A stretch of DNA of 64,000 bases, taken from positions 64,001-128,000 of the IMG/VR virus record IMGVR_UViG_3300035181_002074; one strand, written 5' to 3'. This document shows, piece after piece, positions 27,067 to 59,625 of the stretch; position 1 is the stretch's first letter, and each line of letters opens with the position of its first letter. This stretch comes from a virus. The notes under the pieces were generated by a model. It was not told the origin of the DNA. It was given only the letters and a program-made list of their open reading frames with translations, and did no database searches. The translations under genes and the position numbers were made by a program.

Positions 27067-27365
27067 ACCCAATAGATCAATTGAAATATCTGAAGACGTT
27101 AACTATCACTACGAACTCAGTTCATGATGCTCAAATTCATCAACTGAAAAACTACCCGCTGGTAATCCCTAATATTTTAAGTGCAACCGTCAGTATTGAT
27201 ATCGAAACTAAGCTTATCGAATATAACTTGACCTTTAAGGATGATAAGGCTCCGCGCAAGACCAAAGCATTAAAAAAGAGTTTAACTAGTATCACCCAAT
27301 GGGTGCAGTACATCTTATGGGACGACGCTAATGTTGTCTTTAAGAATCACGAAATCAAATTATGA
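27063..27365 (+). CDS. hypothetical protein
   Basis: ATGA-coupled 100-aa ORF. Confidence 0.7.
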   Translation: MNPIDQLKYLKTLTITTNSVHDAQIHQLKNYPLVIPNILSATVSIDIETKLIEYNLTFKDDKAPRKTKALKKSLTSITQWVQYILWDDANVVFKNHEIKL

Positions 27366-27997
27366 GTAATGAATTAATTGACATCACGCCAGAGGAAACT
27401 TTTGAAGATAAAGCAAAAAGGTTATTATCGATTCCCGATAATAATATGCTAGTTGCGTATATCGAAGCCGGTAAGCATCCTCTTGCTCCAGAAACCGCAT
27501 CCAACTTTTATGGCCTATTCCTTACTGGTAACTCGGTAGGTGAAATTCATCGCCTAAACAAGGCTTTTCCGTATGAATCAATCTTATGGGCTGCAATTAA
27601 GTATGACTGGCACCAGAAACGCGATGAATACGCTTTAGAGTTACAGTCACAGACAGCACAAAAAGTAATGCATGCCCAATTAGAGACAGCGGGACTAATG
27701 TCTGATCTGCTTATTGCATCGACGAAAAAGCACGGGGCGAGAATCAAGAAATATTTACAGTCAGGTAACGAAGCTGATCTTGGCGACGGGTTAAGTATTG
27801 ATTCCTTGCAAAATTTAATGCGTATTGCTGAAAGTCTCCAAAAAGTGACTGGTCAGGCTAATACAGTTAAAGTTAAAACAGAAAACGTTAACACCCAGAA
27901 TGTGAATGTAAGTCTCACCTCGGATGGTAAATCGATGGATGCAGATACCGCTGCAGCAATTTTAAAAGTCGTAGCTGAATCTAGGAAGGGGAAATAA
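27362..27997 (+). CDS. putative terminase small subunit
   Basis: Upstream of TerL; HTH-like region ending KYDWHQKR, then helices. Confidence 0.5.
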   Translation: MSNELIDITPEETFEDKAKRLLSIPDNNMLVAYIEAGKHPLAPETASNFYGLFLTGNSVGEIHRLNKAFPYESILWAAIKYDWHQKRDEYALELQSQTAQKVMHAQLETAGLMSDLLIASTKKHGARIKKYLQSGNEADLGDGLSIDSLQNLMRIAESLQKVTGQANTVKVKTENVNTQNVNVSLTSDGKSMDADTAAAILKVVAESRKGK

Positions 27998-28140
27998 TGA
28001 AGAATTGTAAAAGTTCAACCTGTCTCCAGATAAACCCCCAGCCGTTTGAAGAATTTTATAATACCAATAGATTTAAGGATAGCGCAGTTATATTACATAA
28101 TGCCTTGGAATATATAAAACGGCATCAATTAGGTGTTTAA
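27997..28140 (+). pseudogene. 47-aa internally deleted endonuclease VII-like homing endonuclease remnant
   Basis: MKNCKSSTC...PFEEFYNTNRFKD joined directly to SAVILHNALEYIKRH. Confidence 0.6.
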
Positions 28141-30087
28141 ATGAATGACATTAGTACCCCCATTAATAAAACGCTGGCTGATGCATTTCTGGTGGAAATA
28201 CAGAGCCCAAGGCACATGAGAGACTGGATTGAAACCTATATAGGTATTCGATTCCCTGATACATATATAGACCCAGCCTCAAATAGTTCTCCGATTGAGG
28301 CTATGTATCGTGCATATGCCGATTATCGAGATGACAAGTGCTTGCAAACGCCCGGTTACATCTGGATGTCTGGCCGCGATTTGGGAAAAACGCTATGTGG
28401 ATCAATTTTGAATGTCCTATTAATGGTACATTTTAAAGCCAGTATTGCCCATTTTGCGGCAATCAAGCCACAATCGGAAAAATGTTTGCAATATGTAAGT
28501 GGATTTATTCGTAAAATTACCCCATATTTGGAATATCATGGTAGAAGCGTCATTGGGTCTGCAAAATCAAAAATTCAGATTGAAAATGAAGATAAAACCG
28601 TCAGCTATATAACCGTGATCGTAGCTAACATGGCGGGTGGTAATTCCGAACATTGTCCTGTTGTCTCATTTGATGAATTAGAAGTATTATCGGCAGAAGG
28701 ACTAAAAGGTTACAAAGAAGCAAAACTGATTGCTACGCGGTTTAAAAATAAAGGCCCGCTAGTAATCAAATATTCAACCCGTAAATTTGCGGGTGGTATT
28801 TTTGAAAAAGAGATCCAAAACGCCAAAAACACCGGTGAGATTGTTTTGAGTTGGAATATTGTGGATATGACAGAGAAATGCTTACCAGAGAGGTATAAAC
28901 CCGACCAGCCTAAAATTAAACGATATATTGCCAAAGAATTACCCCTACGTCAAATTACGCCAGATGAATTTGCTATGTTATCAGATAAGGATAGGCTCGA
29001 TTACGATGCTATTGATGCTTATGCTGGCTGCGTGACTTGTCCTTTGTTACCTGTTTGCCGTACAAGGCTTGCGGATCGCCCCGTGGAAGATACAGGTGGG
29101 TTTTTTAAGTCAATTGACCACACTATCCGTCAATTCAAAATTACCGATGCGGAAACCGCCATGGCACAACTTCTATGCTGGAAGCCATCTACTCAAGGAA
29201 TGGTATACCCTAGATTTTTACCGAAGGATGACGGCACGGGGAACACTTTAACAATGAAGCAGGCATGGGAAAGCTTTACAGGAACAGATGCACCCAGAAA
29301 TCTGTCTTTACCTAATTTGATTAAAAAGATGCTGGACAGTGGCGTCAGATTTCATTGTGGTCTTGACTGGGGATATAGAAACTGTTACAGTATCGTCGTT
29401 GGAGCGAAACTAGCAAATGGGGAAATGTGGCTATTAGATACCTATGCGATTAGCGGATTGGAATGGGATGCTCAGCTTGCTTTAGCTAAGCAAGTGAGAG
29501 ATATATATAAACCTGCAAAATGGTTTTGCGATACCGCATATCCGGGTAGTATAAAAACTTTTTCTAAAAATGGAATGCCATGCGGTAAATTCACAAAAGA
29601 TATTTCAGCGGGGATTAACGCCGTCAGAACTCAAATTGTAGATGCTTCGGATCGTCGAAAACTAAAGGTTGTTATCCATGAGCGGAACAATCTTATGCTA
29701 AAAATGTTTGCTGAGAACTGTTTTAAGATGGACGCGCTAGGGAATATCATTTTTGAGGAACGGGAAACTGATGTAGTGGATATCGGAGATGCCACTCGCT
29801 ATCTATTTCAGAACCTTTTTGCCCCAAAACGTGAAGGCATGAAGCATAATATCGATACTAATATTTACGCTTCGATGGATACATCCACAGAAACCTTTGA
29901 AAGTTGGCAAGAGCAGAAACTTAAGGCAGCCAGACAAGAAGATCAACTACAGGATTCCAAAGGGTTATCGCATGATGGTAACCTGTTTTGGGATTTTGGC
30001 GGACTAGACAAAACTGACGATGATCTGAGTGATCGGCCTAATATTATAGAGGAAGCCGAAGAAATCGAAAAGCTTAAAGGACAATAA
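28141..30087 (+). CDS. terminase large subunit
   Basis: SGRDLGKT, VSFDE, YST coupling motif, GLDWG nuclease, DIGDATRY. Confidence 0.9.
   Translation: MNDISTPINKTLADAFLVEIQSPRHMRDWIETYIGIRFPDTYIDPASNSSPIEAMYRAYADYRDDKCLQTPGYIWMSGRDLGKTLCGSILNVLLMVHFKASIAHFAAIKPQSEKCLQYVSGFIRKITPYLEYHGRSVIGSAKSKIQIENEDKTVSYITVIVANMAGGNSEHCPVVSFDELEVLSAEGLKGYKEAKLIATRFKNKGPLVIKYSTRKFAGGIFEKEIQNAKNTGEIVLSWNIVDMTEKCLPERYKPDQPKIKRYIAKELPLRQITPDEFAMLSDKDRLDYDAIDAYAGCVTCPLLPVCRTRLADRPVEDTGGFFKSIDHTIRQFKITDAETAMAQLLCWKPSTQGMVYPRFLPKDDGTGNTLTMKQAWESFTGTDAPRNLSLPNLIKKMLDSGVRFHCGLDWGYRNCYSIVVGAKLANGEMWLLDTYAISGLEWDAQLALAKQVRDIYKPAKWFCDTAYPGSIKTFSKNGMPCGKFTKDISAGINAVRTQIVDASDRRKLKVVIHERNNLMLKMFAENCFKMDALGNIIFEERETDVVDIGDATRYLFQNLFAPKREGMKHNIDTNIYASMDTSTETFESWQEQKLKAARQEDQLQDSKGLSHDGNLFWDFGGLDKTDDDLSDRPNIIEEAEEIEKLKGQ
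30037..30044 (+). promoter_or_regulatory. putative late promoter CCTAATAT
   Basis: Same motif at 27168, 34176, 44199 (CCTAATAC), 54432, 55376 and 59600, each upstream of a gene start in the late region. Confidence 0.65.
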
Positions 30088-30090
30088 CCA

Positions 30091-31056
30091 TTGAAAAAGC
30101 AAGTACTTAATATAATAACTCAAATTTTAGCATATGACGGAGCCAATGGGGTTTCGGATCAACCTTTAATGAAAGCTTTCGACTGGACACGGAGAATGTC
30201 ATCTTTGCCATTGACCAATGCTCAATCCGATTCTTTCGTTTTGGCTGCAGGCGAAAGCAGAGCTTTGTTTAGCGGTGCAAAAGCTAATCCCCTTGATAAT
30301 ACCTCAGTTCTATCTATTACTCCATTAAGTCAAGGTAATTATAGACTTTCTGTGACTGCCGGTACTTCTGGATTCAGAACTCCAAGAACCGTAAACGTAA
30401 CGACTTGCCAAGTTACCGTTAATAATAATGCATTGGCGGTATTTGATTTTGGAGCTGGTACGGTTACTGGTGTGATCGCCGGTGATACTATGCGAATCAA
30501 TAGCCAGATCATGGGAGACACTGGCCCATTTACGTTTAACCCGTTAAATGCGGGACTATGGACGGTAGTTGGTACAAATGGCACCAAAATTTCATGCACT
30601 CGTCCAATTGGCTCTGGATTTCAAGGCTCTAATGAAACCATAAGCGCCGTTAATAATAATGTTCAAATTTACTCATCTTCCGGCATCACTAAAAGTGATA
30701 AAATGAAAATTACTGGTGGATTTAGTACTGTTTCACAAAAAACATTTGAAATCAAAGAAGTAACCCCAACAACAATAGATTTTATTTCAACTGCTGCCCT
30801 GCCATCCGAATCTTTGATATCTAACACTACAAATATGATTCAGTTTTTTTCAACCTCCAAACGTTATTTTTATTTAGAATGCGATCAGGAAACTGTGGTA
30901 TTATTAAATGGTACGGATAGCACTAAAGTTGTTCCAGTTCAGGCTGGAAATTCTTTATTGCCGGGTTTTTTACATCAAACAGGAGATATTTACTCGTGTT
31001 CTGTGACGAATCAGTCCATTAACACTTTGAATATTAGAATATTCACTGGGGAATAA
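30091..31056 (+). CDS. beta-rich putative virion structural protein
   Basis: Thr/Ser/Gly-rich; lies between TerL and portal. Confidence 0.6.
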   Translation: MKKQVLNIITQILAYDGANGVSDQPLMKAFDWTRRMSSLPLTNAQSDSFVLAAGESRALFSGAKANPLDNTSVLSITPLSQGNYRLSVTAGTSGFRTPRTVNVTTCQVTVNNNALAVFDFGAGTVTGVIAGDTMRINSQIMGDTGPFTFNPLNAGLWTVVGTNGTKISCTRPIGSGFQGSNETISAVNNNVQIYSSSGITKSDKMKITGGFSTVSQKTFEIKEVTPTTIDFISTAALPSESLISNTTNMIQFFSTSKRYFYLECDQETVVLLNGTDSTKVVPVQAGNSLLPGFLHQTGDIYSCSVTNQSINTLNIRIFTGE

Positions 31057-31254
31057 ATGAAAAAGCTGTCTAAATTACTGGATGAAACATTTACAACCTT
31101 GGATCAAACCTCTGATTTAGAGAATACCACGGTTTTAAATAAAATGCAAGCCGTAATTTTGGAAGCTAAAGGGTACGATGGAATTGCTTCATCAGAAACC
31201 TTTAAAGAGTTTAAAAGTTTATTCAAAGCCCTTCAGAAAAGGTCGGAGAGATAA
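31057..31254 (+). CDS. hypothetical protein
   Basis: Coupled small ORF. Confidence 0.6.
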   Translation: MKKLSKLLDETFTTLDQTSDLENTTVLNKMQAVILEAKGYDGIASSETFKEFKSLFKALQKRSER

Positions 31255-33296
31255 TGTCAGATAATAATAATACGCCTAGTTTGCCGAAATCAAGTGAGAG
31301 ACAGGTTTATACTGTTGATCATGAAGGCAAAGATTTGCAAAAAGTTGATACCACAGCCGTTGCTAAAGTTGAAGGTGAAGATTATCTTGGCCAAATTTTA
31401 AAATCCCTAAAAGATCAGCAAGTAGCACAGCGAGTTGCTTTCGAAGTTGATCCAAGTAATGTCCAAGGCGTTTCTTCTTACGGAGCCCTTTATGTACAAA
31501 AAACTAAACTTACGCCTGATTGGGTTATTAAAGCCTTAACCGGCCCTGGCGGAGATGAATTATTAAATCAAATTCTTCAAGCACGATCAAATGTAATCGC
31601 TTCTTTTGGTAGACCGAAATCAGATCGATTTTCAGTTGGTTTTGAGTTTTTACCAATTAACAAGTCCACTGAAATTGACAAGGATGCGGATAAAGCTGCA
31701 GCAGTAAAAGATCTCATCGAGAAAGCCAAAGAGATTTTCTGGAACTGTGGATATGCTGGATTAAAAGAAGACCAAACTACCAATCTTTCTCAGTTTTTAA
31801 AGATGATTGTTCGCGATGGTTTACGTTTTGGACGTTGCGCTATCGAAGTGATTCATGCTGTTGACCCAACCTCGGAAAGTGGCGAAAAAGTACATTCTTT
31901 CCGTCCAGTAGACTCTGGAACTATTTATAGAATTAAACCTAAGTCTGAAACAGACCAGTCTGTCCGTAATTCGGCAATCAAACTGTTACAAGAATTAAAA
32001 AACGAAAAAATTGATGTTACAAAATACAAAAAAGATGAATATAAATGGGTTCAAGTGGTTGATGGTAAACCAATCCAAGCATTTTCTGATAAAGAATTAA
32101 TTGTTTATAATTTTTATCCAACCACTAACGTGGAATACAGCGGATACCCATTAACTCCGATTGATCAAGCTATTAGCGCGATCATGACTCATATTAATAT
32201 CACTTTGCACAATAAACTCTATTTCCAGCATGGCCGCGCTACTCGTGGTATGCTAGTTTTCAATTCTGAATCAATGGATGAAATGTCAGCGCAAAAAATC
32301 CGTTTACAGTTCAATCAAACTATTAATACGGTACACAATAGCTGGCGTATGCCGGTTTTCGTAGTAGGTGAAACTGAGAAAGTTACTTGGCAGCCGATCG
32401 ATCAAGGCGGCAGAGATATGGAATTCCAATATCTCATGGATAATAATAGCCGTATCATTATGGGTGCATTTCAAATGTCTCCAGATGAATTGCCGGGCTA
32501 TAATCACCTATCTCGTGGTACCAATACTCAAGCATTAAGCGAAAGTTCGAATGAATGGAAAATGACTGCATCTCGCGATACAGGATTACGTCCATTAATT
32601 TACGATATTCAAGATCTATTTAATACCCATTTATTTCCAAGATTCTTACCAAATCTTTCTGAATCTCATCAGATGATCTTTTCTGGCTTAGATAAAGAAG
32701 ATCCAGAAAAAGAATCTACTCGTTTACAGCAAGATATGAATGTTCATTTAACATACAATGACATCCTTAAAAAAGTTGAAAAAGATATTTTGCCTGCGGC
32801 TTTTGGTGCAGATTTTCCTCTTAATCCACAATTCCAGCAAGTTGTTGAAAAGTACATGACTTTTGGTGAAATCCAAGAAAACTTTTTTGGTAAAAAAGGT
32901 GCAGCCCAAGATCCTAGAAATCAATGGTATGCTAATCCAATGTGGATGCAACAGCAACAAATGCTTGTCCAAAATGCACAGATTGCTATGCAAAATCAAA
33001 TGCAAGCCCAACAAATGGTTGCCCAAGCCATGAATCCACAGCCACAACAAGATCCTAATGCCCCTCAACAAGAAGGTGACGGTGGGGAACCTACGCAGAA
33101 ATCTGAAAAAGATTTTTATGGTGAAATATTCCAAAAGAATATGCAAAATATTCAAACTAATCATAACACGATCAGTAATATGATTCTAGCTAGACATTCT
33201 GCTATTACTAAAAAGCATTCAGATGATTTCCAAAAGCAATCTAAAAAAGCTGCTGAAAAATTAACAGCCGGACTGATTAAAAAGAAGAAAAAATAA
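31254..33296 (+). CDS. portal protein
   Basis: FRPVDSGTI, GYPLTPI, YFQHG...RGML, DMEFQ, FQMSPDEL, GLRPL. Confidence 0.9.
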   Translation: MSDNNNTPSLPKSSERQVYTVDHEGKDLQKVDTTAVAKVEGEDYLGQILKSLKDQQVAQRVAFEVDPSNVQGVSSYGALYVQKTKLTPDWVIKALTGPGGDELLNQILQARSNVIASFGRPKSDRFSVGFEFLPINKSTEIDKDADKAAAVKDLIEKAKEIFWNCGYAGLKEDQTTNLSQFLKMIVRDGLRFGRCAIEVIHAVDPTSESGEKVHSFRPVDSGTIYRIKPKSETDQSVRNSAIKLLQELKNEKIDVTKYKKDEYKWVQVVDGKPIQAFSDKELIVYNFYPTTNVEYSGYPLTPIDQAISAIMTHINITLHNKLYFQHGRATRGMLVFNSESMDEMSAQKIRLQFNQTINTVHNSWRMPVFVVGETEKVTWQPIDQGGRDMEFQYLMDNNSRIIMGAFQMSPDELPGYNHLSRGTNTQALSESSNEWKMTASRDTGLRPLIYDIQDLFNTHLFPRFLPNLSESHQMIFSGLDKEDPEKESTRLQQDMNVHLTYNDILKKVEKDILPAAFGADFPLNPQFQQVVEKYMTFGEIQENFFGKKGAAQDPRNQWYANPMWMQQQQMLVQNAQIAMQNQMQAQQMVAQAMNPQPQQDPNAPQQEGDGGEPTQKSEKDFYGEIFQKNMQNIQTNHNTISNMILARHSAITKKHSDDFQKQSKKAAEKLTAGLIKKKKK

Positions 33297-33314
33297 TCTT
33301 ATTCGGAGAATTCA

Positions 33315-34163
33315 ATGAATCTATCTACCGATCAAGAAGAACTAATCAAAATAACCTTACAGGCTTTGTTTGAAACTATCAAAGCCAAGTTTCTTGGTAA
33401 TTTTTACAAAGGACCATCGATTTATTTTGAATTAGCTACTAAGCAAAATCCACTAGATACCGTTGGTGGTATTTTTGAGTACGCATTGAGAGCAACCACG
33501 AAAAATCCCGTTATCGATCATGACCTCATTAGTAAGCTTGCGAATACATCAGAAAATTATATCGAAGCCGAAAAACAACGCACAATGGAACGGATTTTAA
33601 CCGGCGCCGAAACAGTTACAAATCCCGACGACCTGAAAGATCTTATTCAAACGTCTATTGATAAATCGAGCAAATATATTGACTTATTAATGGCAACGGA
33701 AACTCGCAATGTACAAGCGTGGGGTGAAATGTCTGGAATTCAGCAGGTTGGTGCATCTTTGGGCGTAGATGATCCAACTATCGCTCGCTTAGGTGTATGG
33801 GATGATAAGATTTGCGATGCTTGCCTGAAATTATGGCACCAACCGGATAATCAAAAAATACCACGTGTATGGAAAATGTCAGAGCTTCAAAGTGGGTATA
33901 ATACCGATCAAAAGAATCCCGTGCCAACCGTATCAAGTACGCACCCCCGGTGCAGACATATCCTGACAATTGTTCCACCCAGTTTTGGGTATGACGAAAA
34001 CGGGCGAATTAAGTTTATTCGGTTCGGTTATGATATCTATGATGATCAAAAGGGTATTCATAAAAATGAACGATCTTTCCGTACAGGTGGTACGACTGAC
34101 GATGTGGAAGAATTTATTAATCTGCATCTAGCAGAAAGCTGTTGTAATCATTCAGGAACTTGA
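33315..34163 (+). CDS. head morphogenesis protein (SPP1 gp7/Mu F-like)
   Basis: CDAC...HPRCRH; follows portal. Confidence 0.75.
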   Translation: MNLSTDQEELIKITLQALFETIKAKFLGNFYKGPSIYFELATKQNPLDTVGGIFEYALRATTKNPVIDHDLISKLANTSENYIEAEKQRTMERILTGAETVTNPDDLKDLIQTSIDKSSKYIDLLMATETRNVQAWGEMSGIQQVGASLGVDDPTIARLGVWDDKICDACLKLWHQPDNQKIPRVWKMSELQSGYNTDQKNPVPTVSSTHPRCRHILTIVPPSFGYDENGRIKFIRFGYDIYDDQKGIHKNERSFRTGGTTDDVEEFINLHLAESCCNHSGT

Positions 34164-34219
34164 TTAAGCCTTAAGCCTAATATTTTAGGTAGTCACTGCA
34201 GGGTAAGGATTAATTTACA

Positions 34220-36199
34220 ATGAAAATATACGGAATAGGCGCCAGTCAAGCCATTGATTCTTCAGGGGAAATCTTAATGATCGACGGTGTCGATCTATCC
34301 GATGTTCATGCTGGAAAAGCCTTCTTCAATTGGGAGCACAGTAACGATGGCGCCGATACCTGCGTCGGAAGCCTGACTTTTGCCAAAAAAATCTATTCTG
34401 AAAAAGACTGTGAAAATCCAAAACAATTAGAATGCTGGAATGAAACCCTTTTACCAATGATTTACATTGAAGGGGTTCTCTTTGATAAAGAAGGACATGT
34501 TGGGGCAATTTGCTTGGCCGCTATGTTTCGTTCATTTGTAGCCAGAAATCAAAAAATTGAAATCGGTTCTTCCATTGAAGGTTCTACCATGGAACGTGGA
34601 AAAGGCGAAGAGCACCATGTTCTTAAAAGAACTGTAGCCCGCCGTTGGGCAATTACCCTCAGACCGTGTAACAAGCAATGTTTCCTTAAGGTATTGGCAG
34701 ACGATACTGCTGATGTAATGAAATCGGAAATCGACTGGGATTCTATCAGTCATGATCGTGCCCCAAAACATGGATTCATCGAAATCGACGACCCAATCGA
34801 AGATATTTACCACACTATTAATGAATTAAATAAAACCCTAACAGCTGGATCGTCTAATGTTGCACCAAGTCAAATGGTTGGCGGATCTGCACTTACCCGT
34901 GAAAATCTAGTACCTAAAATGCAAAACGTTGGGATGCAAACTAGACTGAAAGCATCATTCAAGCGTTGGAATAAAAAGAAACCACTTAAGGAGCACCTTA
35001 AATCTGAGCTTGAAGATGTATCAGAGGAGTATATAGATAACTTCGCTAAACTCGCTGATGAACTCCATATTAAGAAATCTGAAGAATCAATGCATACTTG
35101 GCAACAAGTTTGGAATAATATGAAAGATTTCCATACTGGTTCAGTTAATGAAAAAGATGCACCCCATATGCACAAAGATGCGCAAAAATATGAGCATTAT
35201 AAACTTAGAAAAATCCCACTATCAAGTTTACATCATGGATCTGATACGCCCGATAAACCATTAGATCGCGAAGATGAAGCGCATGCACATCATTACGCTA
35301 AATTAGATACCCAAGCGCCACCAATCACTCTGCACCCAAAAGAAACTGGTTACCATATCGTAGATGGTCGTCATCGTGCTAGAGCTGCATACCTGAGAGG
35401 CGACAAAGATATTCTAGCTTACGTTGGTACTCCTATTCAAGCATTCACTAAATCTGAATCCCCTATTCGTATAGACCAGTCAATTGGTAATGATCGCGCA
35501 AATGCAGACCAGAAAGCTTTAATTGCAGGTATAGTTGTGCCAGCCAATGGCGGACAAAATATTCAAGTCATGAATGATTACGGCCAATCATCCCATATCA
35601 AGCCTTCTGCCCTGACCGAATCAGGTGGAGAAACCGCTAAAAATGCTTCTGCATATTATGCTGCAGCAAAAGATTTTTTCGACTTGGGCGAGCATGTTCC
35701 AGTATCAGCCTATTTTGCACACCAGACGGCACCACAAGAAGGGGCACCATTATTTCTAGCCACCGAGCATGTATCTGGTAAGCCATCGCTCATGGGTTCA
35801 TTGTTTGAGGATTCTATCGGTAAAGATAAAAATCTTATGCATAAAATTGCATTAATGGATACTATTTTGGGAAATTCACACAGAAACCATGGTAATATTA
35901 TATTGGGAGATACACCAAAGCTGATTGACAACGAACACGCTTTCGAATATAAACAAAAACCAGCGTTTCACATCAATCAATCCGGTGCCGACATTATTTC
36001 CGAAGATGTTCGTAATTGGTTAACTAGTAAGGATGCCAAGAAATTGGCTGGCTTGCTTGCATCACATAGAATCGGTATAGACCGTATTAAGAAAGCTATT
36101 TTTGCATTGAAGACTGCACAAAAAATGAATCATCATCCGATAGGTACCATTTTAGAGAACGTCCACTTTGTGGAACCTTCTCCAGAGGTAGCACAGTAA
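34220..36199 (+). CDS. prohead protease fused to ParB/Srx-like and PI3/4-kinase-like domains
   Basis: GIGAS..IDSSGE, NWEH, GSSIEG, AITLRPCN (protease); IVDGRHRARA (ParB); DTILGNSHRNHGN..IDNEHAF (kinase-like). Confidence 0.82.
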   Translation: MKIYGIGASQAIDSSGEILMIDGVDLSDVHAGKAFFNWEHSNDGADTCVGSLTFAKKIYSEKDCENPKQLECWNETLLPMIYIEGVLFDKEGHVGAICLAAMFRSFVARNQKIEIGSSIEGSTMERGKGEEHHVLKRTVARRWAITLRPCNKQCFLKVLADDTADVMKSEIDWDSISHDRAPKHGFIEIDDPIEDIYHTINELNKTLTAGSSNVAPSQMVGGSALTRENLVPKMQNVGMQTRLKASFKRWNKKKPLKEHLKSELEDVSEEYIDNFAKLADELHIKKSEESMHTWQQVWNNMKDFHTGSVNEKDAPHMHKDAQKYEHYKLRKIPLSSLHHGSDTPDKPLDREDEAHAHHYAKLDTQAPPITLHPKETGYHIVDGRHRARAAYLRGDKDILAYVGTPIQAFTKSESPIRIDQSIGNDRANADQKALIAGIVVPANGGQNIQVMNDYGQSSHIKPSALTESGGETAKNASAYYAAAKDFFDLGEHVPVSAYFAHQTAPQEGAPLFLATEHVSGKPSLMGSLFEDSIGKDKNLMHKIALMDTILGNSHRNHGNIILGDTPKLIDNEHAFEYKQKPAFHINQSGADIISEDVRNWLTSKDAKKLAGLLASHRIGIDRIKKAIFALKTAQKMNHHPIGTILENVHFVEPSPEVAQ

Positions 36200-43402: not shown

Positions 43403-43403
43403 A

Positions 43404-44096: not shown

Positions 44097-44261
44097 TAAA
44101 TAGTTTTGAGATAATGCATATTATTTTTACCAATAAAAACAAATGTTTATAAAATCAAAGCTAACTCCATAATAATATACACTTTTTGAGAAATCTATCC
44201 TAATACTCTTTGGTGTACGGGCGAATTATGCCCACAATAAACTTTTAAGGAGTTAAAACCT

Positions 44262-44717
44262 ATGTCAGTTTTCAAAGCTGCCGCTCACGTAAGAGAGCTA
44301 AAACAAAGATTGTCAATTTTATTGCCATCTTCCACTATTTCTGAATCATCTGATACAGATACAATGCCAACCCTCACTATTCAAACTGGTACTGAATACC
44401 AAAATTTGAAAATCAGTGTTGATGGAAACCAAGGACGTGTTGATGGTCTCGGACTTTCTCAACGTGCTTATTCACCACATGTTTGTCAACTAATCCAAGA
44501 GTCTGCTGCTGCTGCTGATGCTGCAAAAGCGTCCGCTCGTGCTAAAGTACTTGCAGGTTGTGCAAAACTGGGCATGAAAATTACTCTACAGCAAGCTGCT
44601 GATGCTGGATTATCTGCTAACTGGACTGCTGCTGTAGCTGCTGTAGCTGCTGACTCAGGTGCGACTACTATCGTATTACCAAGTGATGAAATCAATCCAT
44701 TAACATCTTCTCAATAA
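44262..44717 (+). CDS. putative virion/head protein
   Basis: Strong AAGGAG RBS, first gene of the capsid operon. Confidence 0.55.
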   Translation: MSVFKAAAHVRELKQRLSILLPSSTISESSDTDTMPTLTIQTGTEYQNLKISVDGNQGRVDGLGLSQRAYSPHVCQLIQESAAAADAAKASARAKVLAGCAKLGMKITLQQAADAGLSANWTAAVAAVAADSGATTIVLPSDEINPLTSSQ

Positions 44718-45550: not shown

Positions 45551-46939
45551 ATGGACTTAATTAAGCAACTAGAATCCCTAGTTAAAACCTTAGAGGCTGG
45601 AAGTTACAATTCAGCACCGGGACAATTAGTACAAGGATCTGCGCTTCAATCTGAAGATCTGTCAGCTGTTATGCATAATGTGTGTATCGCTTCAGATGAG
45701 ATTAAATTGCAGAAACTTTTCGGTAAGAAAAAAGCAAAATCTCTTACCATCCAATTCAATCGTCAGTTATCATACGGACGTTTGGGTGGAGCAGCTCAGC
45801 GCGAAGGCGCGGTTGGTAATACCAACGTAGGCGACTACGTTCGTGCTACAGTACCTATGTGCTTCTATTCAGAAGTACGCAGAGTGACTGAAGCAGCTAA
45901 CTTGATCGAAGCATTTGATGGTATCAAAGCAGAAGATCGCGAAGCTGAAAACGCAGCTGAAGTAATTGCTATGAACATTGAGTTCGACCTTTTCAAAGGT
46001 AAAGCAGACTTCTCTAACGCAGGTGTATTTGATGGTCATCCAGCAGCTATGCCTGAATTACCAAACATGCTTGGAGTTGACTCTCAAATTCGTCAATCTG
46101 ACATGCTTGTAACTACTCAAGACCTTATGTTCGCGTCTTACGGATCTAATCAATCTGTAGTTCTTGCTCAGAACGCTGCTCTTGACCAGATCGTAATTGA
46201 AGATGCTCGTCTTCGTGCAAAGTTGAACTTTTCACAAGCTAAGAATCTTTATGTAGATCCTGTAATCATGACTAGCTACAACAAAAAAGTTGCACTTGGT
46301 ACTGGTACTAACAGTATTCAACGTATTCAACTCGCTGGTTCTGCTCAAGACGTTTCTGGAGCTTCTCTCCGTCGTCAATGGACAGCTCACGGTGATGTTA
46401 ATCTTGAAGAGTCTCACTTCTTACGCGGTAAGACTTCTCCACTTCGTCCAAACATTGGTGGGCCTTCTGCTCCAGCAATCACTACTCAACCATCTTTCGG
46501 TGGTTCTGGTTCATTGATTACTGCGGGTACTTATGTTTACCTAGTAACTGCTCAAAGTGAAATCGGCGAAAGCCCTGCTACTGCTACTAACACAGTTTCT
46601 CCTACTACTGGCACAGTTGTTACTATGACAATTACTGCTCAGTCTGGAGTTAAGTTTTACAGCATCTATCGCGGAACTAATGCTAAGAATGCTAAGTTCA
46701 TCGGTAACGTTGCTGCAACTGGTGGAAACGTAGTATTTACTGACCTTGGTAATAAGGCTCCGGGATTCGTCACAGGGTACCTCCTAGACGAGAAGACTTG
46801 GGAAATGCATGATCTTGCCGCTTACAGTCGTAAGAAACTTGCTCAATCCGATCTTTCTACTCCAGAGGCCCATTATACCTTCACAACTGTGGCAGGATAC
46901 CAACCTCGTAAAAATGTAATTATCGATAATTTAATTTAG
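45551..46939 (+). CDS. major capsid protein (SPO1/Twort-like, with inserted Ig/FN3-like domain)
   Basis: KTLEAG...GSALQSEDL N-terminus, IEFDLFKG, TYVYLVTAQSEIGES insertion; strong codon bias; followed by a terminator. Confidence 0.9.
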   Translation: MDLIKQLESLVKTLEAGSYNSAPGQLVQGSALQSEDLSAVMHNVCIASDEIKLQKLFGKKKAKSLTIQFNRQLSYGRLGGAAQREGAVGNTNVGDYVRATVPMCFYSEVRRVTEAANLIEAFDGIKAEDREAENAAEVIAMNIEFDLFKGKADFSNAGVFDGHPAAMPELPNMLGVDSQIRQSDMLVTTQDLMFASYGSNQSVVLAQNAALDQIVIEDARLRAKLNFSQAKNLYVDPVIMTSYNKKVALGTGTNSIQRIQLAGSAQDVSGASLRRQWTAHGDVNLEESHFLRGKTSPLRPNIGGPSAPAITTQPSFGGSGSLITAGTYVYLVTAQSEIGESPATATNTVSPTTGTVVTMTITAQSGVKFYSIYRGTNAKNAKFIGNVAATGGNVVFTDLGNKAPGFVTGYLLDEKTWEMHDLAAYSRKKLAQSDLSTPEAHYTFTTVAGYQPRKNVIIDNLI

Positions 46940-47016: not shown

Positions 47017-47045
47017 TTGACTTGTCTTAATATTAATGGTATAAT
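47017..47045 (+). promoter_or_regulatory. sigma70-type promoter
   Basis: TTGACT-17-(TG)TATAAT. Similar 17-nt-spaced promoters at 47274-47302, 47888-47916, 48420-48448, 50778-50806 and 52364-52392. Confidence 0.85.
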
Positions 47046-47051: not shown

Positions 47052-47318
47052 ATGAAGAAGCCAGTCTTTATACCCAAAAAAATTGCAACCATGACTAAAG
47101 AAGCTGAAATTGTGTCAGCCCTTGCTGCACAGGGATTAAATACCCAAGCAATAATTAAAGCTTCTGGTTTATATAAAGATATTGTCAGAGCTGTTGCATA
47201 TCATTTCAATATTGTACTGCCAAAACATATTGCACCAGAGCGCAAACAAAAAGAATCAGAATTCCTAGAGAGGTTGACATCTTTCCATTTTCATGCTACA
47301 CTCCTATTAGGAGCCTAG
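47052..47318 (+). CDS. hypothetical protein (leaderless)
   Basis: ATG 6 nt after TATAAT. Confidence 0.65.
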   Translation: MKKPVFIPKKIATMTKEAEIVSALAAQGLNTQAIIKASGLYKDIVRAVAYHFNIVLPKHIAPERKQKESEFLERLTSFHFHATLLLGA

Positions 47319-48454: not shown

Positions 48455-48577
48455 ATGAGTGATATAGACAGTCCATTTTGGGATATTTTGTTTGATAATA
48501 ACCAGTTCTTTTTTTGCCACGATCCAATTGGTGAAAACGGTAATAGCTATCCGATGCTAGCAGTAGGAGATTGTTAA
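48455..48577 (+). CDS. 40-aa hypothetical protein (leaderless)
   Basis: ATG 6 nt after TAAGAT; stop overlaps next ATG (TAATG). Confidence 0.55.
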
Positions 48578-49020
48578 TGACCCCAAAACAACTTAAATTA
48601 ATCTTAGACCAGCACCTTTTATGGTTACAAACTGACCCGAAGGGCATCCGTGCCAACCTTAGTGGAGCCGACCTTCGTGTAGCCAACCTTAGTGGAGCCG
48701 ACCTTCGTGGAGCCAACCTTAGTGTAGCCGACCTTCGTGGAGCCAACCTTAGTGGAGCCCACCTTCGTGGAGCCCACCTTAGTGGAGCCAACCTTAGTGG
48801 AGCCAACCTTAGTGGAGCCCACCTTCGTGGAGCCCACCTTAGTGGAGCCCACCTTAGTGGAGCCATAGGCATCCAAGTTTTTTGTTTGATGCAAAACGCA
48901 AAAACCTACGATTTATCCAAACAATATATTAAAATCGAATATTGTCAATATTATTCGGCTAAAAATCTGGTAAATATCAACAAAGTTTACAATGTTAGTG
49001 TAGTGGAGGAAGTAATATAA
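48577..49020 (+). CDS. pentapeptide repeat protein
   Basis: ILDQHLLWL...G.RA leader, then 14 A(N/D/H)L(S/R)(G/V) units. Confidence 0.9.
48652..48861 (+). repeat. 14 x 15-bp tandem repeat
   Basis: GCC(A/G/C)ACCTT(A/C)GTG(G/T)A units. Confidence 0.95.
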
Positions 49021-52428: not shown

Positions 52429-53508
52429 ATGAAGATTAGTGAAATTAAAAGAGGATTACCCCACCTGATTGCCGCAAAAGTTCCAGCATTACTTATTGGA
52501 CACCACGGCTTAGGTAAAAGTTCTGTAATGAGACAAATTGCAGATGAATCTGGAATGACATTTTTTGATGTACGCCTTGGAACTATGTGCGATCCGGGCG
52601 ATTTACTTGGACTTATGATCGAGCGCCAAGATGCTGAAGGCAACAAATCTTTTGAACACGTGCTACCAGCTTGGTGGCCTAAAGCCGGTGAACGCAAAAT
52701 GATCTTTATCGACGAGATCAATCGTGCTCGCCCAGATATGCTCCAAATGGTATTCCAATTAATCCTTGATCGTCGTATCCATACCCATGTATTGCCAGAA
52801 GGCTGTACTGTGCATGCTGCGATGAATCCAGACAGCAATGATTACAAAACTACCAATATTGACGATGCCGCTTTATTGAGTCGTTTTTGCCAAATTAAGT
52901 TTACTCCATCCCAAGAAGAATTTCTTGAATATGCTCGCAGTAAACCAAAATTTGATTCTACTTTCCTTGGCTTCGTAGCAGAAAATATGCAAATGGTTGA
53001 CTGCACTGGCCTTGAATCATTCGAAGTAAAAGCGAAACCAGATCGTCGTGCTATCGTAAGAGCTGAAGAAGTGCTTTCTTCGGGATTACCAGAAGATCTT
53101 TGGATTGAGATGCTTGGCGGAATGCTTGGTTACGAAATGGCTGTAAAATACGTTGAATACGTAAAGTCAAACGAAATCAAACCACTTACTTTTGAACAAG
53201 TAGTTGGTGCATACAATAAACACAGCCATGTTGTTGCTGCTATGATGAAAAAAGAACGTCATGATGTAGTGACTGTAACCGTGGACAATGTATTGTCGGA
53301 GCTTTTCAAGCGTAAAGATTTGACTAAGAAAGAATCATTGAATATTAGATCATTCTTGCTTGATATCCCTAAAGATATTACTCAAGGTTTCATCAACAGA
53401 TTCCTTTCTGATTCTCCAAGTCATGCGAATAATCCAGTAAGCATTAACATCAATAAATATGTTCTTGATGACGCTTTCGTGGAAACGTTCTCAGCGAAAG
53501 TGAAATAA
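52429..53508 (+). CDS. MoxR-like AAA+ ATPase
   Basis: GHHGLGKS, FIDEINRA, AMNP, DAALLSRF. Confidence 0.9.
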   Translation: MKISEIKRGLPHLIAAKVPALLIGHHGLGKSSVMRQIADESGMTFFDVRLGTMCDPGDLLGLMIERQDAEGNKSFEHVLPAWWPKAGERKMIFIDEINRARPDMLQMVFQLILDRRIHTHVLPEGCTVHAAMNPDSNDYKTTNIDDAALLSRFCQIKFTPSQEEFLEYARSKPKFDSTFLGFVAENMQMVDCTGLESFEVKAKPDRRAIVRAEEVLSSGLPEDLWIEMLGGMLGYEMAVKYVEYVKSNEIKPLTFEQVVGAYNKHSHVVAAMMKKERHDVVTVTVDNVLSELFKRKDLTKKESLNIRSFLLDIPKDITQGFINRFLSDSPSHANNPVSININKYVLDDAFVETFSAKVK

Positions 53509-53509
53509 T

Positions 53510-53963: not shown

Positions 53964-53976
53964 ATAAGGAAAAGGT

Positions 53977-54294: not shown

Positions 54295-54436
54295 TGCCCT
54301 GCTCACGGTAGCAGCATTAGGAGCTACGGTCTTATTCGTGTATCAAGCGGTTGTTGTAAATCAATGTAATTATTCGCTTTTGTTTGTTATCCTAGCGAAT
54401 TTACTGATAATGCGCTTAAGATCGTGGCTCCCCTAA
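54287..54436 (+). CDS. 49-aa two-TM membrane protein
   Basis: MINALLTVAALGATVLFVY...SLLFVILANLLIM. Confidence 0.5.
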   Translation: MINALLTVAALGATVLFVYQAVVVNQCNYSLLFVILANLLIMRLRSWLP

Positions 54437-54455
54437 TATTTGTCATGAGGGTAAA

Positions 54456-54755
54456 ATGGATAAAACAAGGTATGAATTTACCGTTACCGTTTCCGCAGAA
54501 GTACTTAGCGGCTTCCCTATGCCTATTTACGATGAATCAGGCAAAATCATCGGGGCATTTACCCAGCACTATACAAACTCATTACGCTGCTTTGTAGCAG
54601 CAACCGGATGGGGTGATTCAATTCATCTCGAAGATCAATTCTGGTTTACCCCTACATTAAATGAATCCAATATCGTTGTCTCTGGCCATATTTCCGCCAT
54701 TGAGCATTCTAATCAATCCATCAAAGTAAAAGGTGCAGGGAGAAACTATGAGTAG
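54456..54755 (+). CDS. hypothetical protein
   Basis: GAGG RBS, preceded by CCTAATAT. Confidence 0.65.
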   Translation: MDKTRYEFTVTVSAEVLSGFPMPIYDESGKIIGAFTQHYTNSLRCFVAATGWGDSIHLEDQFWFTPTLNESNIVVSGHISAIEHSNQSIKVKGAGRNYE

Positions 54756-55380
54756 ACCAAGACAAATGCGGAAACCACCAAATGACTCTGATCAAATCTG
54801 GGTAACTCATTTTGATGATGAAGGTTTAGAAGATTTTTACGAAAAATTCATGGAATTAGAAAATGACCCATCTATTTCAATTATCTCAATAATTGTAAGC
54901 AGTTATGGTGGTGATGTGGCCATAATGAACTCCATGAGAGATTTGATTAAGTCATCCCATAAGCCTGTATCCACCTTGGCACTGGGTAAAGCGATGTCAG
55001 CTGGCATTTGCCTGTTAGCGTCTGGCACAAAGGGATATCGTTTTGCGGCACCTAATTCATCCTTAATGTTTCATGAAGTTAGTACGATGCATCACGGGAA
55101 GGCCACTGATCTGGAAACATCATCACTTAATACGACCCAGATTAATAAATTATTGATTAGAAATTTCGCGCATGATACCGATAATACAGTCAAAGAGATT
55201 GAGAATGAAATGCATGCGCGGGGTAATAGTGATTGGTTTCTGACACCACAAGAAGCTCTTAATTGGGGTATCATCGATCAAATTGCAATTCCACGTGTTG
55301 TGACGCAGCATTCTCCATCTACCTTAGCTATCGTTAAAACTGTCCCAAAGCCACTATCCAAGAAAAAGAGAAAAGCCTAA
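54733..55380 (+). CDS. clpP: ClpP-like protease
   Basis: SSYGG, GKAMSAG (Ser), MFHE (His), DWFLTPQEALNWGIID (Asp); true start probably ATG 54748. Confidence 0.88.
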   Translation: MQGETMSRPRQMRKPPNDSDQIWVTHFDDEGLEDFYEKFMELENDPSISIISIIVSSYGGDVAIMNSMRDLIKSSHKPVSTLALGKAMSAGICLLASGTKGYRFAAPNSSLMFHEVSTMHHGKATDLETSSLNTTQINKLLIRNFAHDTDNTVKEIENEMHARGNSDWFLTPQEALNWGIIDQIAIPRVVTQHSPSTLAIVKTVPKPLSKKKRKA

Positions 55381-55393
55381 TATTTTCTAAGGA

Positions 55394-55825
55394 TTGGAAG
55401 TACGAATGCGCTACGGTTTCATACTCTTAGATAATGTTTATAATGTAAATTCCTTTGATAAAACTGAAAACCTCAATATTATCAACGGGAACCTCACGAC
55501 CATTTACTTTAGATTGGTAACAATCAAAGGTAATTCCGGTGATATCGACCATGACACCTTGCGATTCATTCCAGCCGCTGGAACCCAAGCTTACGTTTCT
55601 TTTGCGAGTATTGATGATGCAGCTGCAATTACCGACCGCCCAGCATCTCAACCATACCCAACCCAAGATACCTCTATTTTTTCTGTTACCTTAGCAGCTG
55701 ACGAAAGTATCGCACAAAATTCCATGTCGGTTAAATTTAACGACGGCGTGAATACATTTTACGCAGAACGTTTATCTGATATTACACAACAAGACATTAA
55801 TTCAAAGGACAGATTTTTCTGTTAA
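55394..55825 (+). CDS. putative virion protein
   Basis: Beta-rich, preceded by CCTAATAT; start probably ATG 55406. Confidence 0.55.
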   Translation: MEVRMRYGFILLDNVYNVNSFDKTENLNIINGNLTTIYFRLVTIKGNSGDIDHDTLRFIPAAGTQAYVSFASIDDAAAITDRPASQPYPTQDTSIFSVTLAADESIAQNSMSVKFNDGVNTFYAERLSDITQQDINSKDRFFC

Positions 55826-55831
55826 AGTTAC

Positions 55832-56710
55832 ATGGCAGATTTAAGTAAAGCAAAAAAAGGCATTTATGCCGTATCACCCGAAGGTACCATTGACTCAGCG
55901 CAATCATTTGAGACAATGGAGCCTATTTACAATGGCAGGGATGTGCGCGAGAATTTTCTTTTCGGCGTACCGATGACTGCTCCATTAACAGGTGAAAAAT
56001 TAACTGATCGTATGTTGGATAAGTACGTTAAACGCGCTATCAATCTTGTGGAAACGGAATCAAAAATTGATATTCAGCCGCGAGTTAAAAGAACACGCCA
56101 GCCGTTTCATAGCAAAGATTACACACATTATATTCACTTGGAAATTCCACATAAGCCGATTCGTAAAGTTATTAGTATTTCTATTTCTGCTGCAAATTAT
56201 GCAGATACACCTGACCAGAATGAACAATTTCCGAATGGTTTGAAACTTTATACTATGCCTAACGAATGGGTAGATATGGCGAATGCTACTAGAGGGGTAT
56301 TAAATATTAACCCGTTTTCACCAGCATTTTCGCCGGTAGGGGCAGCCGCTGAATTTGGTACTGCAGGTGCAACACCGATCACCCATTTTCTTGGACAGAT
56401 GTCTTTTATTCCGGGCTTTTGGAATATTGAAGTACTGTGCGGAGTTGGATGCGAAAAAACCGGCATGATTCCTGTTAGTTTTAACGAATTACTGGGAATG
56501 AAGGCAGCAATGCTTGCTTTAGATAATTTAATTCCAATGTTTCGCGTAAGCTCTCAATCGTTAGGTGTTGACGGTTTAAGTCAAAGCGTGAATGATAATC
56601 TTTTTACTTTGCTAGCAAATAAACGTAAACAACTAGAAGCTGATTACGATAAACTTTTAAAATCACTGAAGACTAATTACTCACAACGGTTCTTCATGAC
56701 GAGCGTCTAA
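55832..56710 (+). CDS. head-tail adaptor/neck protein
   Basis: SQSLGVDGLSQS motif, context. Confidence 0.65.
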   Translation: MADLSKAKKGIYAVSPEGTIDSAQSFETMEPIYNGRDVRENFLFGVPMTAPLTGEKLTDRMLDKYVKRAINLVETESKIDIQPRVKRTRQPFHSKDYTHYIHLEIPHKPIRKVISISISAANYADTPDQNEQFPNGLKLYTMPNEWVDMANATRGVLNINPFSPAFSPVGAAAEFGTAGATPITHFLGQMSFIPGFWNIEVLCGVGCEKTGMIPVSFNELLGMKAAMLALDNLIPMFRVSSQSLGVDGLSQSVNDNLFTLLANKRKQLEADYDKLLKSLKTNYSQRFFMTSV

Positions 56711-56724
56711 GAGGGGAAATAATC

Positions 56725-57975: not shown

Positions 57976-58478
57976 ATATAGCAGCTAATCAAATTCAAGA
58001 AAAGAAACTTGCTGGCGTTTGTAAAAATGGCCCAGTTGTGTATATCCTTACTAAAGGAGGACTCCACAGCATGTTCTCACGTGATGGAAAAGGTGATATA
58101 GTATCACTTGCCGCCGCCCCACACCGAGCGATTTGTACTTTTTTTGCTGAAAAGAAAGATCCTAGTATTAAGTGGCACAGTGATTTTTTATCTAAAACTG
58201 ATGGAACTGAAATTGACTTAATTAAGAACGAAGAAGATCAATTTCAAAAATATCGTAAAATGATTTGGTTTCAAACTGAAGATTTCTATAAATCGGAAGC
58301 GTCCGATATTTATTTCGTATATGATACATCATCAAATGATATCTGGATCTCTGATTTGAATGAAATTAAAGAAGATTTACAAAAGAATGAAATTAACCGA
58401 AATTGTATAGTTCGACCAATCGATCTCAGTGCTCCGCCAAGAATGCTGGATCTTTGTGATGAATTCAAAGTGGAATAA
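57972..58478 (+). CDS. hypothetical late protein
   Basis: Coupled ORF with K(S/N)E motifs. Confidence 0.7.
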   Translation: MNIAANQIQEKKLAGVCKNGPVVYILTKGGLHSMFSRDGKGDIVSLAAAPHRAICTFFAEKKDPSIKWHSDFLSKTDGTEIDLIKNEEDQFQKYRKMIWFQTEDFYKSEASDIYFVYDTSSNDIWISDLNEIKEDLQKNEINRNCIVRPIDLSAPPRMLDLCDEFKVE

Positions 58479-58727
58479 ATGACTTCGCTAGAACGTCGTT
58501 TTTTACTGTTTTGTTCGTTGCAAGATAAACAAGGCTACGGCATAAAACCTTATGCAATGACTATTGTTCGTCAATTATTGAATCGGATGAAACATATTAT
58601 TATTGAACATGACTGCGAAGTATATGAGTTTACAAAGTTCGGTGAAATGATTTATATCGTATATCGATACGAGAATTCTCGTTTTGTATATCAGTCGAGA
58701 TTAAAGGTAGATTATGGCAGAAAATAA
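58479..58727 (+). CDS. hypothetical protein
   Basis: 82 aa. Confidence 0.6.
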   Translation: MTSLERRFLLFCSLQDKQGYGIKPYAMTIVRQLLNRMKHIIIEHDCEVYEFTKFGEMIYIVYRYENSRFVYQSRLKVDYGRK

Positions 58728-59598
58728 ATTAGGACCAAGAGGGAGAAAATCAAAAGCGCCCAGTGGTAATCAGCTAATCAACGGATTAGTTAATTATCAG
58801 GTTAGTTTTGATAAAGCTGCATTCGATCATTTAATCAGATCGCAAGGCGTAGCTATGACTCATTACAGAGCAATTCCCGACCCACGCGGAATGTCTTCTC
58901 GTGGAGACAGTCATGCCGTAGGAACCGCTAGACAATCCGTAGATGGATACATTTATAAAGAAGCAGGTACTATTACCGCATTTTTTAGTAATAATAGCAA
59001 TAATCCCAAGGCAGCTGAATCCAGTGTGCTTGAACATGCTACTGCCTATATTACTGCCCCAGATTTTTATGATGACAAGCCTGAATGTCCTGTATTGTTT
59101 AGTCCATGGGACAGACTTTTCCTTAAAGATATCGAAATCCGTGTAGTTACTTCTCAGGAATTAGAAGCATCTCAAACCGGTATTGATATCCTGCAATTCC
59201 CTGCTACATGTGTTGAACACTTAATAGATGCCCATGGCGTTGAATATATTGAAGGAGTGGATTTTGAAATTACCACCGAAGGGCATATTCAATGGATAAG
59301 CCAAAATAGACCCGGATTCGATCCAGAGCTTGGCAGAGGACGAGTGTTTGCCGTTAGGTTCCGTTATACCCCTTTTTTCGTCGTTGATCGCCTATTACAT
59401 GAAATCCGCGTCAGTCAGGTGACCAATCCAAGAACAAATAAGCGCAGCCTAGAACGCATGCCTTATCAAGTATCTGTTGTTCGAGAGTATGTATTCAGGG
59501 ATATGAACCGTAATAACTCAAAAGACGAAAATACCGACCATTCCCGCTTCCAAGATGCTCCATCCCCAGCTGGCCGAATGGGCCCGAAAGACTATTAA
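58714..59598 (+). CDS. head closure/neck protein
   Basis: FDHLIRSQG..., WDRL, YIEGVDF..., FVVDRLLHEIR; context. Confidence 0.55.
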   Translation: MAENKLGPRGRKSKAPSGNQLINGLVNYQVSFDKAAFDHLIRSQGVAMTHYRAIPDPRGMSSRGDSHAVGTARQSVDGYIYKEAGTITAFFSNNSNNPKAAESSVLEHATAYITAPDFYDDKPECPVLFSPWDRLFLKDIEIRVVTSQELEASQTGIDILQFPATCVEHLIDAHGVEYIEGVDFEITTEGHIQWISQNRPGFDPELGRGRVFAVRFRYTPFFVVDRLLHEIRVSQVTNPRTNKRSLERMPYQVSVVREYVFRDMNRNNSKDENTDHSRFQDAPSPAGRMGPKDY

Positions 59599-59625
59599 CC
59601 CTAATATTTTCACTAAGGAAACCTT

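Follow-up and report, generated by a model that had tools for sequence, protein, structure and literature searches.

The stretch considered here, called the window throughout, is 64,000 nucleotides (nt) of the IMG/VR virus record IMGVR_UViG_3300035181_002074 and corresponds to bases 64001-128000 of a 160,612-bp phage contig, G000, which has a guanine-plus-cytosine (GC) content of 0.396 and is rated 99% complete. It carries repeated copies of an eight-letter word, CCTAATAT, referred to below as the box, together with a gene for a phage-encoded sigma70-family factor, and the relationship between these two is the subject of this text. PHROGs and Pfam scans reveal that the gene content of G000 separates cleanly by strand. 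The plus strand encodes the terminase, portal, head protease, major capsid protein, baseplate, fibres, a homologue of the tail sheath of Myxococcus phage Mx1 and the endolysin, while the minus strand encodes a DnaE-like polymerase, primase, DnaB-like helicase, ribonucleotide reductase, UvsX-like recombinase, SbcC-like protein, dUTPase, a GroEL-like protein and many small open reading frames (ORFs). Boxes were placed relative to a greedy, non-overlapping set of ORFs of at least 45 amino acids (aa), from simple calls made in this analysis. Four DNA sequencing runs, from sediment and mat habitats, contain all or part of the window, and no RNA run was listed for it.

Distribution of the box

Across G000 the word occurs 23 times on the plus strand and not once on the minus strand. 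It is the most over-represented 8-mer of the genome, with 3.44 copies expected under an order-3 Markov model (Poisson P 3e-12), and none of 200 simulated genomes reached 23 copies (mean 3.5), the largest simulated count of 14 lying above what the Poisson tail predicts, for which the analysis has no explanation. Intergenic bases make up only 6.1% of G000 and hold 18 of the 23 copies. Similarly, 20 of the 23 lie 0-100 nt 5' of a plus-strand ORF start, a zone that covers 6.5% of positions (P 3e-21), and the three remoter copies, at genome positions 41836, 86223 (window 22223) and 91168 (window 27168), equal the number expected by chance, about 3.4 per strand. The distribution, which a preliminary description of this DNA had sketched from seven sites, is therefore not random on the scale of the genome. 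Within the window alone the excess is marginal, with 7 copies against 3.1 expected and 3 of 100 shuffles reaching 7.

One-mismatch variants of the box are not enriched (92 on the plus strand and 66 on the minus strand of G000), and the genomic copies share an extended form, a-a-S-CCTAATAT-T-Y-t. The distance from box to start codon varies between 7 and 89 nt with no fixed register, and at six of the twelve places where genes switch from the minus to the plus strand (counting ORFs of at least 80 aa) an exact box sits in the short gap. Taken together, the box is well supported as a cis-element. At five positions (L004:5684-5701; window 55376-55396; L005:3253-3273 and 8602-8624; L002:17435-17455) it ends 7-12 nt 5' of the start codon, the endolysin gene having its box 7 nt before the start, and at the homologue of one of these genes the short spacing recurs in Mx1 and in the related genome G002. 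Second among the over-represented 8-mers of G000 are the words of a 15-bp tandem repeat (CCTTAGTGGAGCC...) at window 48571-49020 (+), which encodes a pentapeptide-repeat-like ORF of 149 aa.

The seven sites that the preliminary description listed in the window are present where it placed them, all on the plus strand; six are exact copies of CCTAATAT and the one at 44199 is CCTAATAC, as it had stated. A further exact copy at 22223 (+), absent from that list, brings the total for the window to seven exact copies, all on the plus strand. The box at 30037-30044 (+) is contained in the terminase large-subunit ORF near its 3' end, and 46 nt separate it from the TTG that starts ORF 30091-31056, the homologues of which in the related genomes G002, G003 and Mx1 carry the family box upstream at distances d = 31, 48 and 6. 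The box at 34176-34183 (+) is intergenic and lies 36 nt before ORF 34220-36199, a 659-aa homologue of the Mx1 gene annotated 'putative prohead protease', with boxes at d = 60 and 24 before the homologues in G002 and G003. At 54432-54439 (+) an intergenic box marks a switch from minus- to plus-strand genes, 16 nt before ORF 54456-54755, after which comes the head maturation protease gene (54733-55380). The next, at 55376-55383 (+), overlaps the TAA stop of that protease gene, 10 nt from a TTG at 55394 or 22 nt from an ATG at 55406, and the homologues of the ORF 3' of it in G002, G003 and Mx1 have a box at d = 4, 22 and 18. Finally, the intergenic box at 59600-59607 (+) precedes ORF 59626-59964 by 18 nt, and the homologues of this ORF in G002 and G003 have theirs at d = 20 and 25.

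The variant CCTAATAC at 44199-44206 (+) is intergenic, follows a minus-strand ORF and lies 55 nt before ORF 44262-44717, which opens the operon containing the major capsid gene (45551-46939). Genome-wide this variant is not enriched (2 on the plus strand, 1 on the minus strand); in G003 a canonical box precedes the homologue of ORF 44262 at d = 50, evidence that 44199 is a genuine site despite its changed last letter, and it counts as a probable late promoter. The exact copy at 27168-27175 (+) is more doubtful: it lies inside ORF 27063-27365, 186 nt before ORF 27362-27997, no box occurs at the equivalent place in G002, G003 or Mx1, and it may be a chance copy or else an internal promoter specific to this lineage. 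The copy at 22223-22230 (+), antisense within the minus-strand ORF 22057-23142 and 1106 nt from the next plus-strand start, is probably due to chance. It had been claimed that the sites cover the packaging, portal, protease, capsid and neck blocks; boxes do stand before virion and lysis genes, but the packaging block is not really covered.

Promoter classes and the phage sigma factor

The same word emerges from an unbiased 7-mer enrichment search of the 80 nt before ORF starts with the two strands of G000 kept apart. For plus-strand genes the top upstream 7-mer is CCTAATA (19 of 94, P 2e-21), while for minus-strand genes the enriched 7-mers, TATGGTA and GGTTGAC, are fragments of sigma70 promoters. 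A scan for TTGACA-N16-18-TATAAT allowing up to two mismatches located 18 intergenic sites facing minus-strand genes, against 4 places facing plus-strand genes. The box itself was said to lack a -35 element, and this is borne out, with nothing conserved from -45 to -4 (information content does not exceed 0.41 bit, and the random 99th percentile is 0.43) and a TTGACA-like hexamer at 16-18 bp spacing in only 1 of 20 sites. What the G000 box does have is a TAATAT core with a fixed C-C just upstream and a fixed T-T just downstream. TAATAT and its counterpart CAATCT both have an invariant A in second position and an invariant T at the end. Region 2 of a sigma binds the clamp helices of the core polymerase and reads the -10 element; in sigma70 promoters it flips out two bases of that element, at -11 and -7, and the invariant A and final T correspond to the bases captured in this way. 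A majority pyrimidine-A follows the box by 7-8 nt in all five genomes compared (G000, G001, G002, G003 and Mx1).

Three of the boxes directly adjoin the -35 hexamer of a sigma70-like early promoter that points the other way (TGTCAA-n-CCTAATAT), at L002:17405-17442, L004:5652-5691 and L005:18207-18244, or genome 35405-35442, 59652-59691 and 144207-144244; there, about 40 bp would be contested or shared by the early and late polymerases. Within the structural region of the window a near-perfect sigma70 promoter, TTGACT-17-TATAAT, lies at 47017-47045 (+), 6 nt before the small plus-strand ORF 47052-47318, an early-type gene by this signal, set among late genes.

The sigma factor is a protein of 335 aa encoded at 24766-25773 (+), with regions 1.2, 2, 3, 3.2 and 4.1, and its sequence breaks off just past the 'LKFG' of region 4.1. 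The preliminary description called it a region-4-truncated sigma. Its membership of the sigma70 family and its lack of the region 4.2 helix-turn-helix stand, and regions 1.2, 2, 3 and 4.1 are kept. The single sequence matches SigA at E 0.0057, and a profile of its family matches SigA/RpoD at E 4.6e-11 in an alignment that begins at region 2.1 and stops at residue 564 of E. coli sigma70. Against SigA the alignment passes from region 2.1 to region 3.0 ('LKIP...'), an acidic linker and the 'RYG' of region 4.1, whereupon the protein ends, and all 10 homologues in the protein collection (313-359 aa) stop at this same point in region 4.1. An AlphaFold2 model (predicted local distance difference test, pLDDT, 70.9) gives sigma chains only among the 50 Foldseek matches listed, the best at E 3e-4. 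The Pfam models of regions 2, 3 and 4 barely reach the protein or miss it; Sigma70_r2 matches 5 of the 10 family members (best E 0.023), and Sigma70_r4 finds no match anywhere in the six frames of G000 at E <= 1.

The gene lies in a plus-strand block of helicase, sigma, GroES-like and SbcD-like genes that carries no late box, which fits an earlier time of expression. A public gene call starts the sigma 20 codons after the start of the longest ORF, giving 315 aa; the longer N-terminus, with a conserved D-H-F, is common to 7 of the 10 homologues and the start at 24766 overlaps the end of the helicase ORF, and of the two starts 24766 appears the likelier. The ORF directly 3' of the sigma gene, 25782-26072 (+), was considered as a detached region 4.2 and rejected, being GroES-like (Cpn10, E 0.068). 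A GroEL-like gene (phrog_5725, E 7e-78) lies near the sigma gene on the opposite strand, at 20257-22026 (-), and the phage thus appears to have a chaperonin pair of its own. The gene at 22057-23142 (-), divergent from the block of helicase and sigma, encodes a candidate regulator of 361 aa with weak winged helix-turn-helix matches (HTH_36, Crp-like; E ~1e-4).

A second protein deserves attention beside the sigma. Directly upstream of the DnaE-like polymerase gene, at 9986-10195 (-), lies the gene for an acidic mini-protein of 69 aa with a C-terminal helix-turn-helix of the LuxR/sigma-4.2 type, and this position is kept in G001, G002, G003 and Mx1. Its family has 286 representatives, nearly all of 61-120 aa. 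A profile of 58 members gives weak matches to NarL (E 0.0055), region 4.2 of WhiG (E 0.076) and region 4.2 of sigma28/FliA (E 0.13-0.35). The mini-protein is modelled as three helices (pLDDT 80.5); this model has no Foldseek match, its single sequence reaches only E 0.43 against solved structures, and in VIA its Z is at most 3.7, with several sigma domain 4 chains at Z 2.3-3.1. It is a tentative candidate for a partner of the truncated sigma.

The box among Mx1-like relatives

A nucleotide search of the phage collection with window 28141-36100 gave no match, and the single sigma sequence used as query for related loci found nothing, while the sigma family profile retrieved 66 related loci in IMG/VR with GC contents from 31% to 69%. 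Among the relatives recovered, Myxococcus phage Mx1 (OR576727.2) alone is in culture; its capsid protein is 49% and its sigma, annotated 'putative RNA polymerase sigma factor', 33% identical to those of G000. The two genomes share the gene order helicase-sigma-x-SbcD-like-x-x-terminase-x-portal, and Mx1 has a homologous box, YCAATCTT, before homologous genes. They differ in GC content, 55.5% in Mx1 against 39.6% in G000, and in two places of the box (T to C and A to C). In the 66 loci, each of about 21 kb around the sigma gene, counts of the box or of its degenerate family pattern, totalling 168 on the plus and 120 on the minus strand against 137 and 123 for a control, are uninformative, and tests of the box in relatives used whole contigs instead; about 20 of the loci belong to contigs longer than 130 kb.

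On this scale the box recurs in forms that drift from genome to genome. In G001 (GC 40%, 68% complete) CCTAATAT itself occurs 13 times on the plus strand and twice on the minus strand, 8 of the 13 being intergenic and 9-74 nt before plus-strand ORFs. It is not enriched in G002, G003, G004 or G005; G002 and G003 use a variant box, found de novo as (A)CTTAATCT in 15 of 80 upstream regions of G002 (P 4e-20) and as CCTAATCT(TA) in 24 of 87 plus-strand upstream regions of G003 (P 8e-32). The top 7-mer of Mx1 is CAATCTT, in 9 of 106 plus-strand upstream regions (P 7e-8), and YCAATCTT occurs 12 times on the plus strand and never on the minus strand. These forms are united in the family consensus C-Y-Y-A-A-T-M-T-T, in which A-A-T and T-T never change. 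The consensus occurs 15 times against 4 on the two strands of G010, including 13 copies of CCTAATCTT that all lie on a single strand, 7 times against 1 in G009, and 5 times against 2 in G007. The two genomes with 'A' as the variable letter of the box are sister lineages and represent one evolutionary event.

The box also holds its position across the relatives. G000 genes with a box and a homologue in a given relative were taken, and those homologues preceded by the relative's own box were counted (Fisher test). A box was found for 14 of 15 homologues in G003 (P 3.4e-9), 8 of 13 in G002 (P 7e-5), 5 of 9 in Mx1 (P 0.007) and 3 of 7 in G001 (P 0.019), and the sheath gene carries one in all five genomes.

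Other words were seen in the same genomes. Before minus-strand ORFs of Mx1, GTAGATCAAC is enriched (8 of 112, P 7e-7; L080-L086) and may represent a further class of promoter or operator. The k-mer ranking of G001 (L073-L078) is topped by a high-copy word family, GCGAACCTGCCAGT / CCTGCTCG, with 25-53 copies against 1-6 expected. The top k-mers of the individual loci are mixed words, among which AAACTCTAT stands out in L011-L013, where about 20 kb contain 8-9 copies of AAACTCTA(T), all on a single strand, a word that may be a different box.

Possible readers of the box and known systems

From its placement before virion and lysis genes and its -10-like core we infer that CCTAATAT is a promoter that acts late, and the explanation we favour, with fair but not full confidence, is that it is a single-element promoter read by the phage sigma on the host core polymerase. 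That the sigma is the reader we infer from the co-occurrence of the two, from the absent -35 element and from the lack of a detectable phage RNA polymerase, and the missing region 4.2, the helix-turn-helix by which a sigma reads -35 boxes, is in keeping with a promoter that has none. On the minus strand, early and replication genes would be transcribed from ordinary sigma70-type promoters. The plus-strand block without a late box would then produce the phage sigma, comprising regions 1.2 to 4.1, and on the host core RNA polymerase this factor most likely takes the place of the host sigma. The new holoenzyme would be directed to about 20 boxes before baseplate, sheath, fibre, head and endolysin genes, with transcription probably starting 7-8 nt after the box at the conserved pyrimidine-A. 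A start at this distance would leave some late messenger RNAs leaderless or nearly so. The 69-aa mini-protein may substitute for the absent region 4.2, for example on the beta flap.

Several observations weigh against this explanation. The pairing of sigma and box rests on their co-occurrence, and since the sigma was the means by which every relative was found, a genome having the box but no sigma could not have come up. The Pfam region 2 model misses the G000 sigma at E <= 1 and the residues of regions 2.3 and 2.4 differ from those of sigma70, so that binding of a -10-like element by this protein is assumed rather than read from its sequence. Six of the twelve plus-strand blocks at strand switches have no exact box, among them the helicase-sigma block, a nucleotidyltransferase/HNH/ATPase block and the capsid operon, which has only CCTAATAC, a variant that alters the presumed key final T. 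No box precedes the terminase gene in any genome examined (G000, G002, G003 and Mx1), and in G006 and G008 C-Y-Y-A-A-T-M-T-T has no clear preference for either strand. The likeness of the mini-protein to sigma region 4.2 is weak. Finally, GTAGATCAAC in Mx1 suggests that promoters of more than two classes may exist in the family, in which case the sigma could serve another class.

This last point also lends itself to a different reader, in which the box is a late promoter or activator site used by the host sigma70 holoenzyme after remodelling by another phage protein, either a DNA-binding late activator or a sigma appropriator, while the phage sigma serves a middle class. TAATAT agrees with the -10 hexamer of sigma70 at its three strongest positions, other candidate DNA binders exist in the 361-aa winged helix-turn-helix protein and the 69-aa mini-protein, and the further oriented word of Mx1 stands before minus-strand genes. 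However, host -10 elements lack flanks like the invariant C-C and T-T, the absent -35 element matches the absent region 4.2, and G000 yields only two upstream motif classes and one phage sigma, for which a one-to-one pairing is simpler; we regard this alternative as unlikely, although worth keeping in mind. Reading by a phage RNA polymerase that has escaped recognition is much harder to sustain. Five G000 proteins of 1,094-2,132 aa without a Pfam match leave room for a very divergent polymerase, for instance within such large proteins of 1,000-2,100 aa, but PHROGs puts two of them among the baseplate and tail genes, and six-frame searches of G000 with PF00623 and PF00562 found no RNA polymerase domain while control genomes matched (a search with PF00940 was uninformative, its controls giving no signal). 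Keeping a sigma also implies use of the host core polymerase, and a phage enzyme as reader therefore seems to us very improbable.

Strict strand specificity in the direction of transcription, a place just before start codons and the several copies between co-directional genes, inside read-through transcripts, would also suit a word that acts in RNA, as a processing site or as a translation or stability signal in late 5' leaders. Such a signal would hardly tolerate start-codon distances of 7 to 89 nt with no register. Six copies moreover lie in short gaps after minus-strand genes, at points that require a promoter and show no other conserved feature, and conservation falls on the letters of a -10 element, with the pyrimidine-A at start-site distance, so that we give an action in RNA very little credence. 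An 8-mer confined to one strand is also the signature of Chi and KOPS words, which raises the question of a polar DNA signal, or else of a compositional accident. With 18 of 23 copies in the roughly 6% of the genome that is intergenic, positions before homologous genes conserved while the letters drift, and the full count reached in 0 of the 200 simulations, either is extremely unlikely.

The late promoters of phage T4 have the consensus TATAAATA. Their single element is -10-like, nothing is conserved at -35, and they are read by the diverged sigma-family protein gp55 on the host core polymerase, in a late system composed of gp55, gp33 and the clamp gp45, where gp33 is a separate small protein on the beta flap at the place that region 4 would occupy (PMC7892883, PMC2988020). 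The preliminary description pointed to gp55 as the known precedent, which holds for the kind of promoter, a single element, and the possible role of the 69-aa mini-protein finds a parallel in gp33. The box sequence differs from that of T4, however, and gp55 is minimal, comprising region 2 and a helix-loop-helix, whereas the protein here has 335 aa with regions 1.2, 2, 3 and 4.1. General PHROGs scans revealed no gp33-like or sliding-clamp family, no dedicated search for gp33 or gp45 having been made, and gave a weak clamp-loader match for an ATPase at window 52429-53508.

In view of the regions kept, gp36 of phiEco32 is the closer precedent. It is described as a sigma without homology to region 4 that reads a single element, tAATGTAtA, at middle/late promoters, with starts 6-8 bp downstream (PMC8948821). 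Common to phiEco32 (Kuravirus) and the Mx1-like phages are thus the phage sigma, the single element and a TAAT core in both boxes, and the pyrimidine-A 7-8 nt after the Mx1-like box lies at the start-site distance of the gp36 promoters. Unlike phiEco32, the Mx1-like phage is a myophage of about 160 kb from an unrelated family with an unrelated box, its sigma keeps regions 3 and 4.1, and the system is predicted here from sequence. Single -10-like phage late promoters read by a sigma without region 4 are therefore a kind already known. The novelty lies in the phage family, in the box it uses, and in a sigma that retains regions 3 and 4.1, its region 4.2 perhaps existing as a separate protein. 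A full-text literature search for CCTAATAT gave no phage-promoter paper among the matches listed, a literature search found no paper describing an Mx1-like late box and sigma, and in a term search of the Mx1 genome announcement (PMC10720576) the terms 'promoter', 'late' and 'transcription' do not occur.

A single-element late promoter read by the phage sigma leaves room for a further step, which we put forward as a speculative extension. The sigma may be a natural two-piece factor, in which the protein with regions 1.2 to 4.1 reads C-Y-Y-A-A-T-M-T-T and the mini-protein, co-transcribed with the DNA polymerase gene, sits on the beta flap with no reading of a -35 element. If so, the firing of late genes would be tied to expression of the replication module, and several late messages, including that of the endolysin, would start at the AUG or within a few nucleotides of it.

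At the level of the family, these results define a probable late regulon, with about 20 promoters in G000, and its likely reader for a large and almost unstudied group of phages, represented by 66 IMG/VR loci of 31-69% GC and a single cultured member, Mx1. As the letters of the box drift (A/C, T/C) at fixed positions, the family offers a natural series for understanding how DNA is recognized by a sigma without region 4.2, and since Mx1 grows on Myxococcus xanthus the prediction is directly testable. The box should also be useful for annotating gene starts and operons in Mx1-like phages, and it may provide, with its sigma, an orthogonal promoter-sigma pair.

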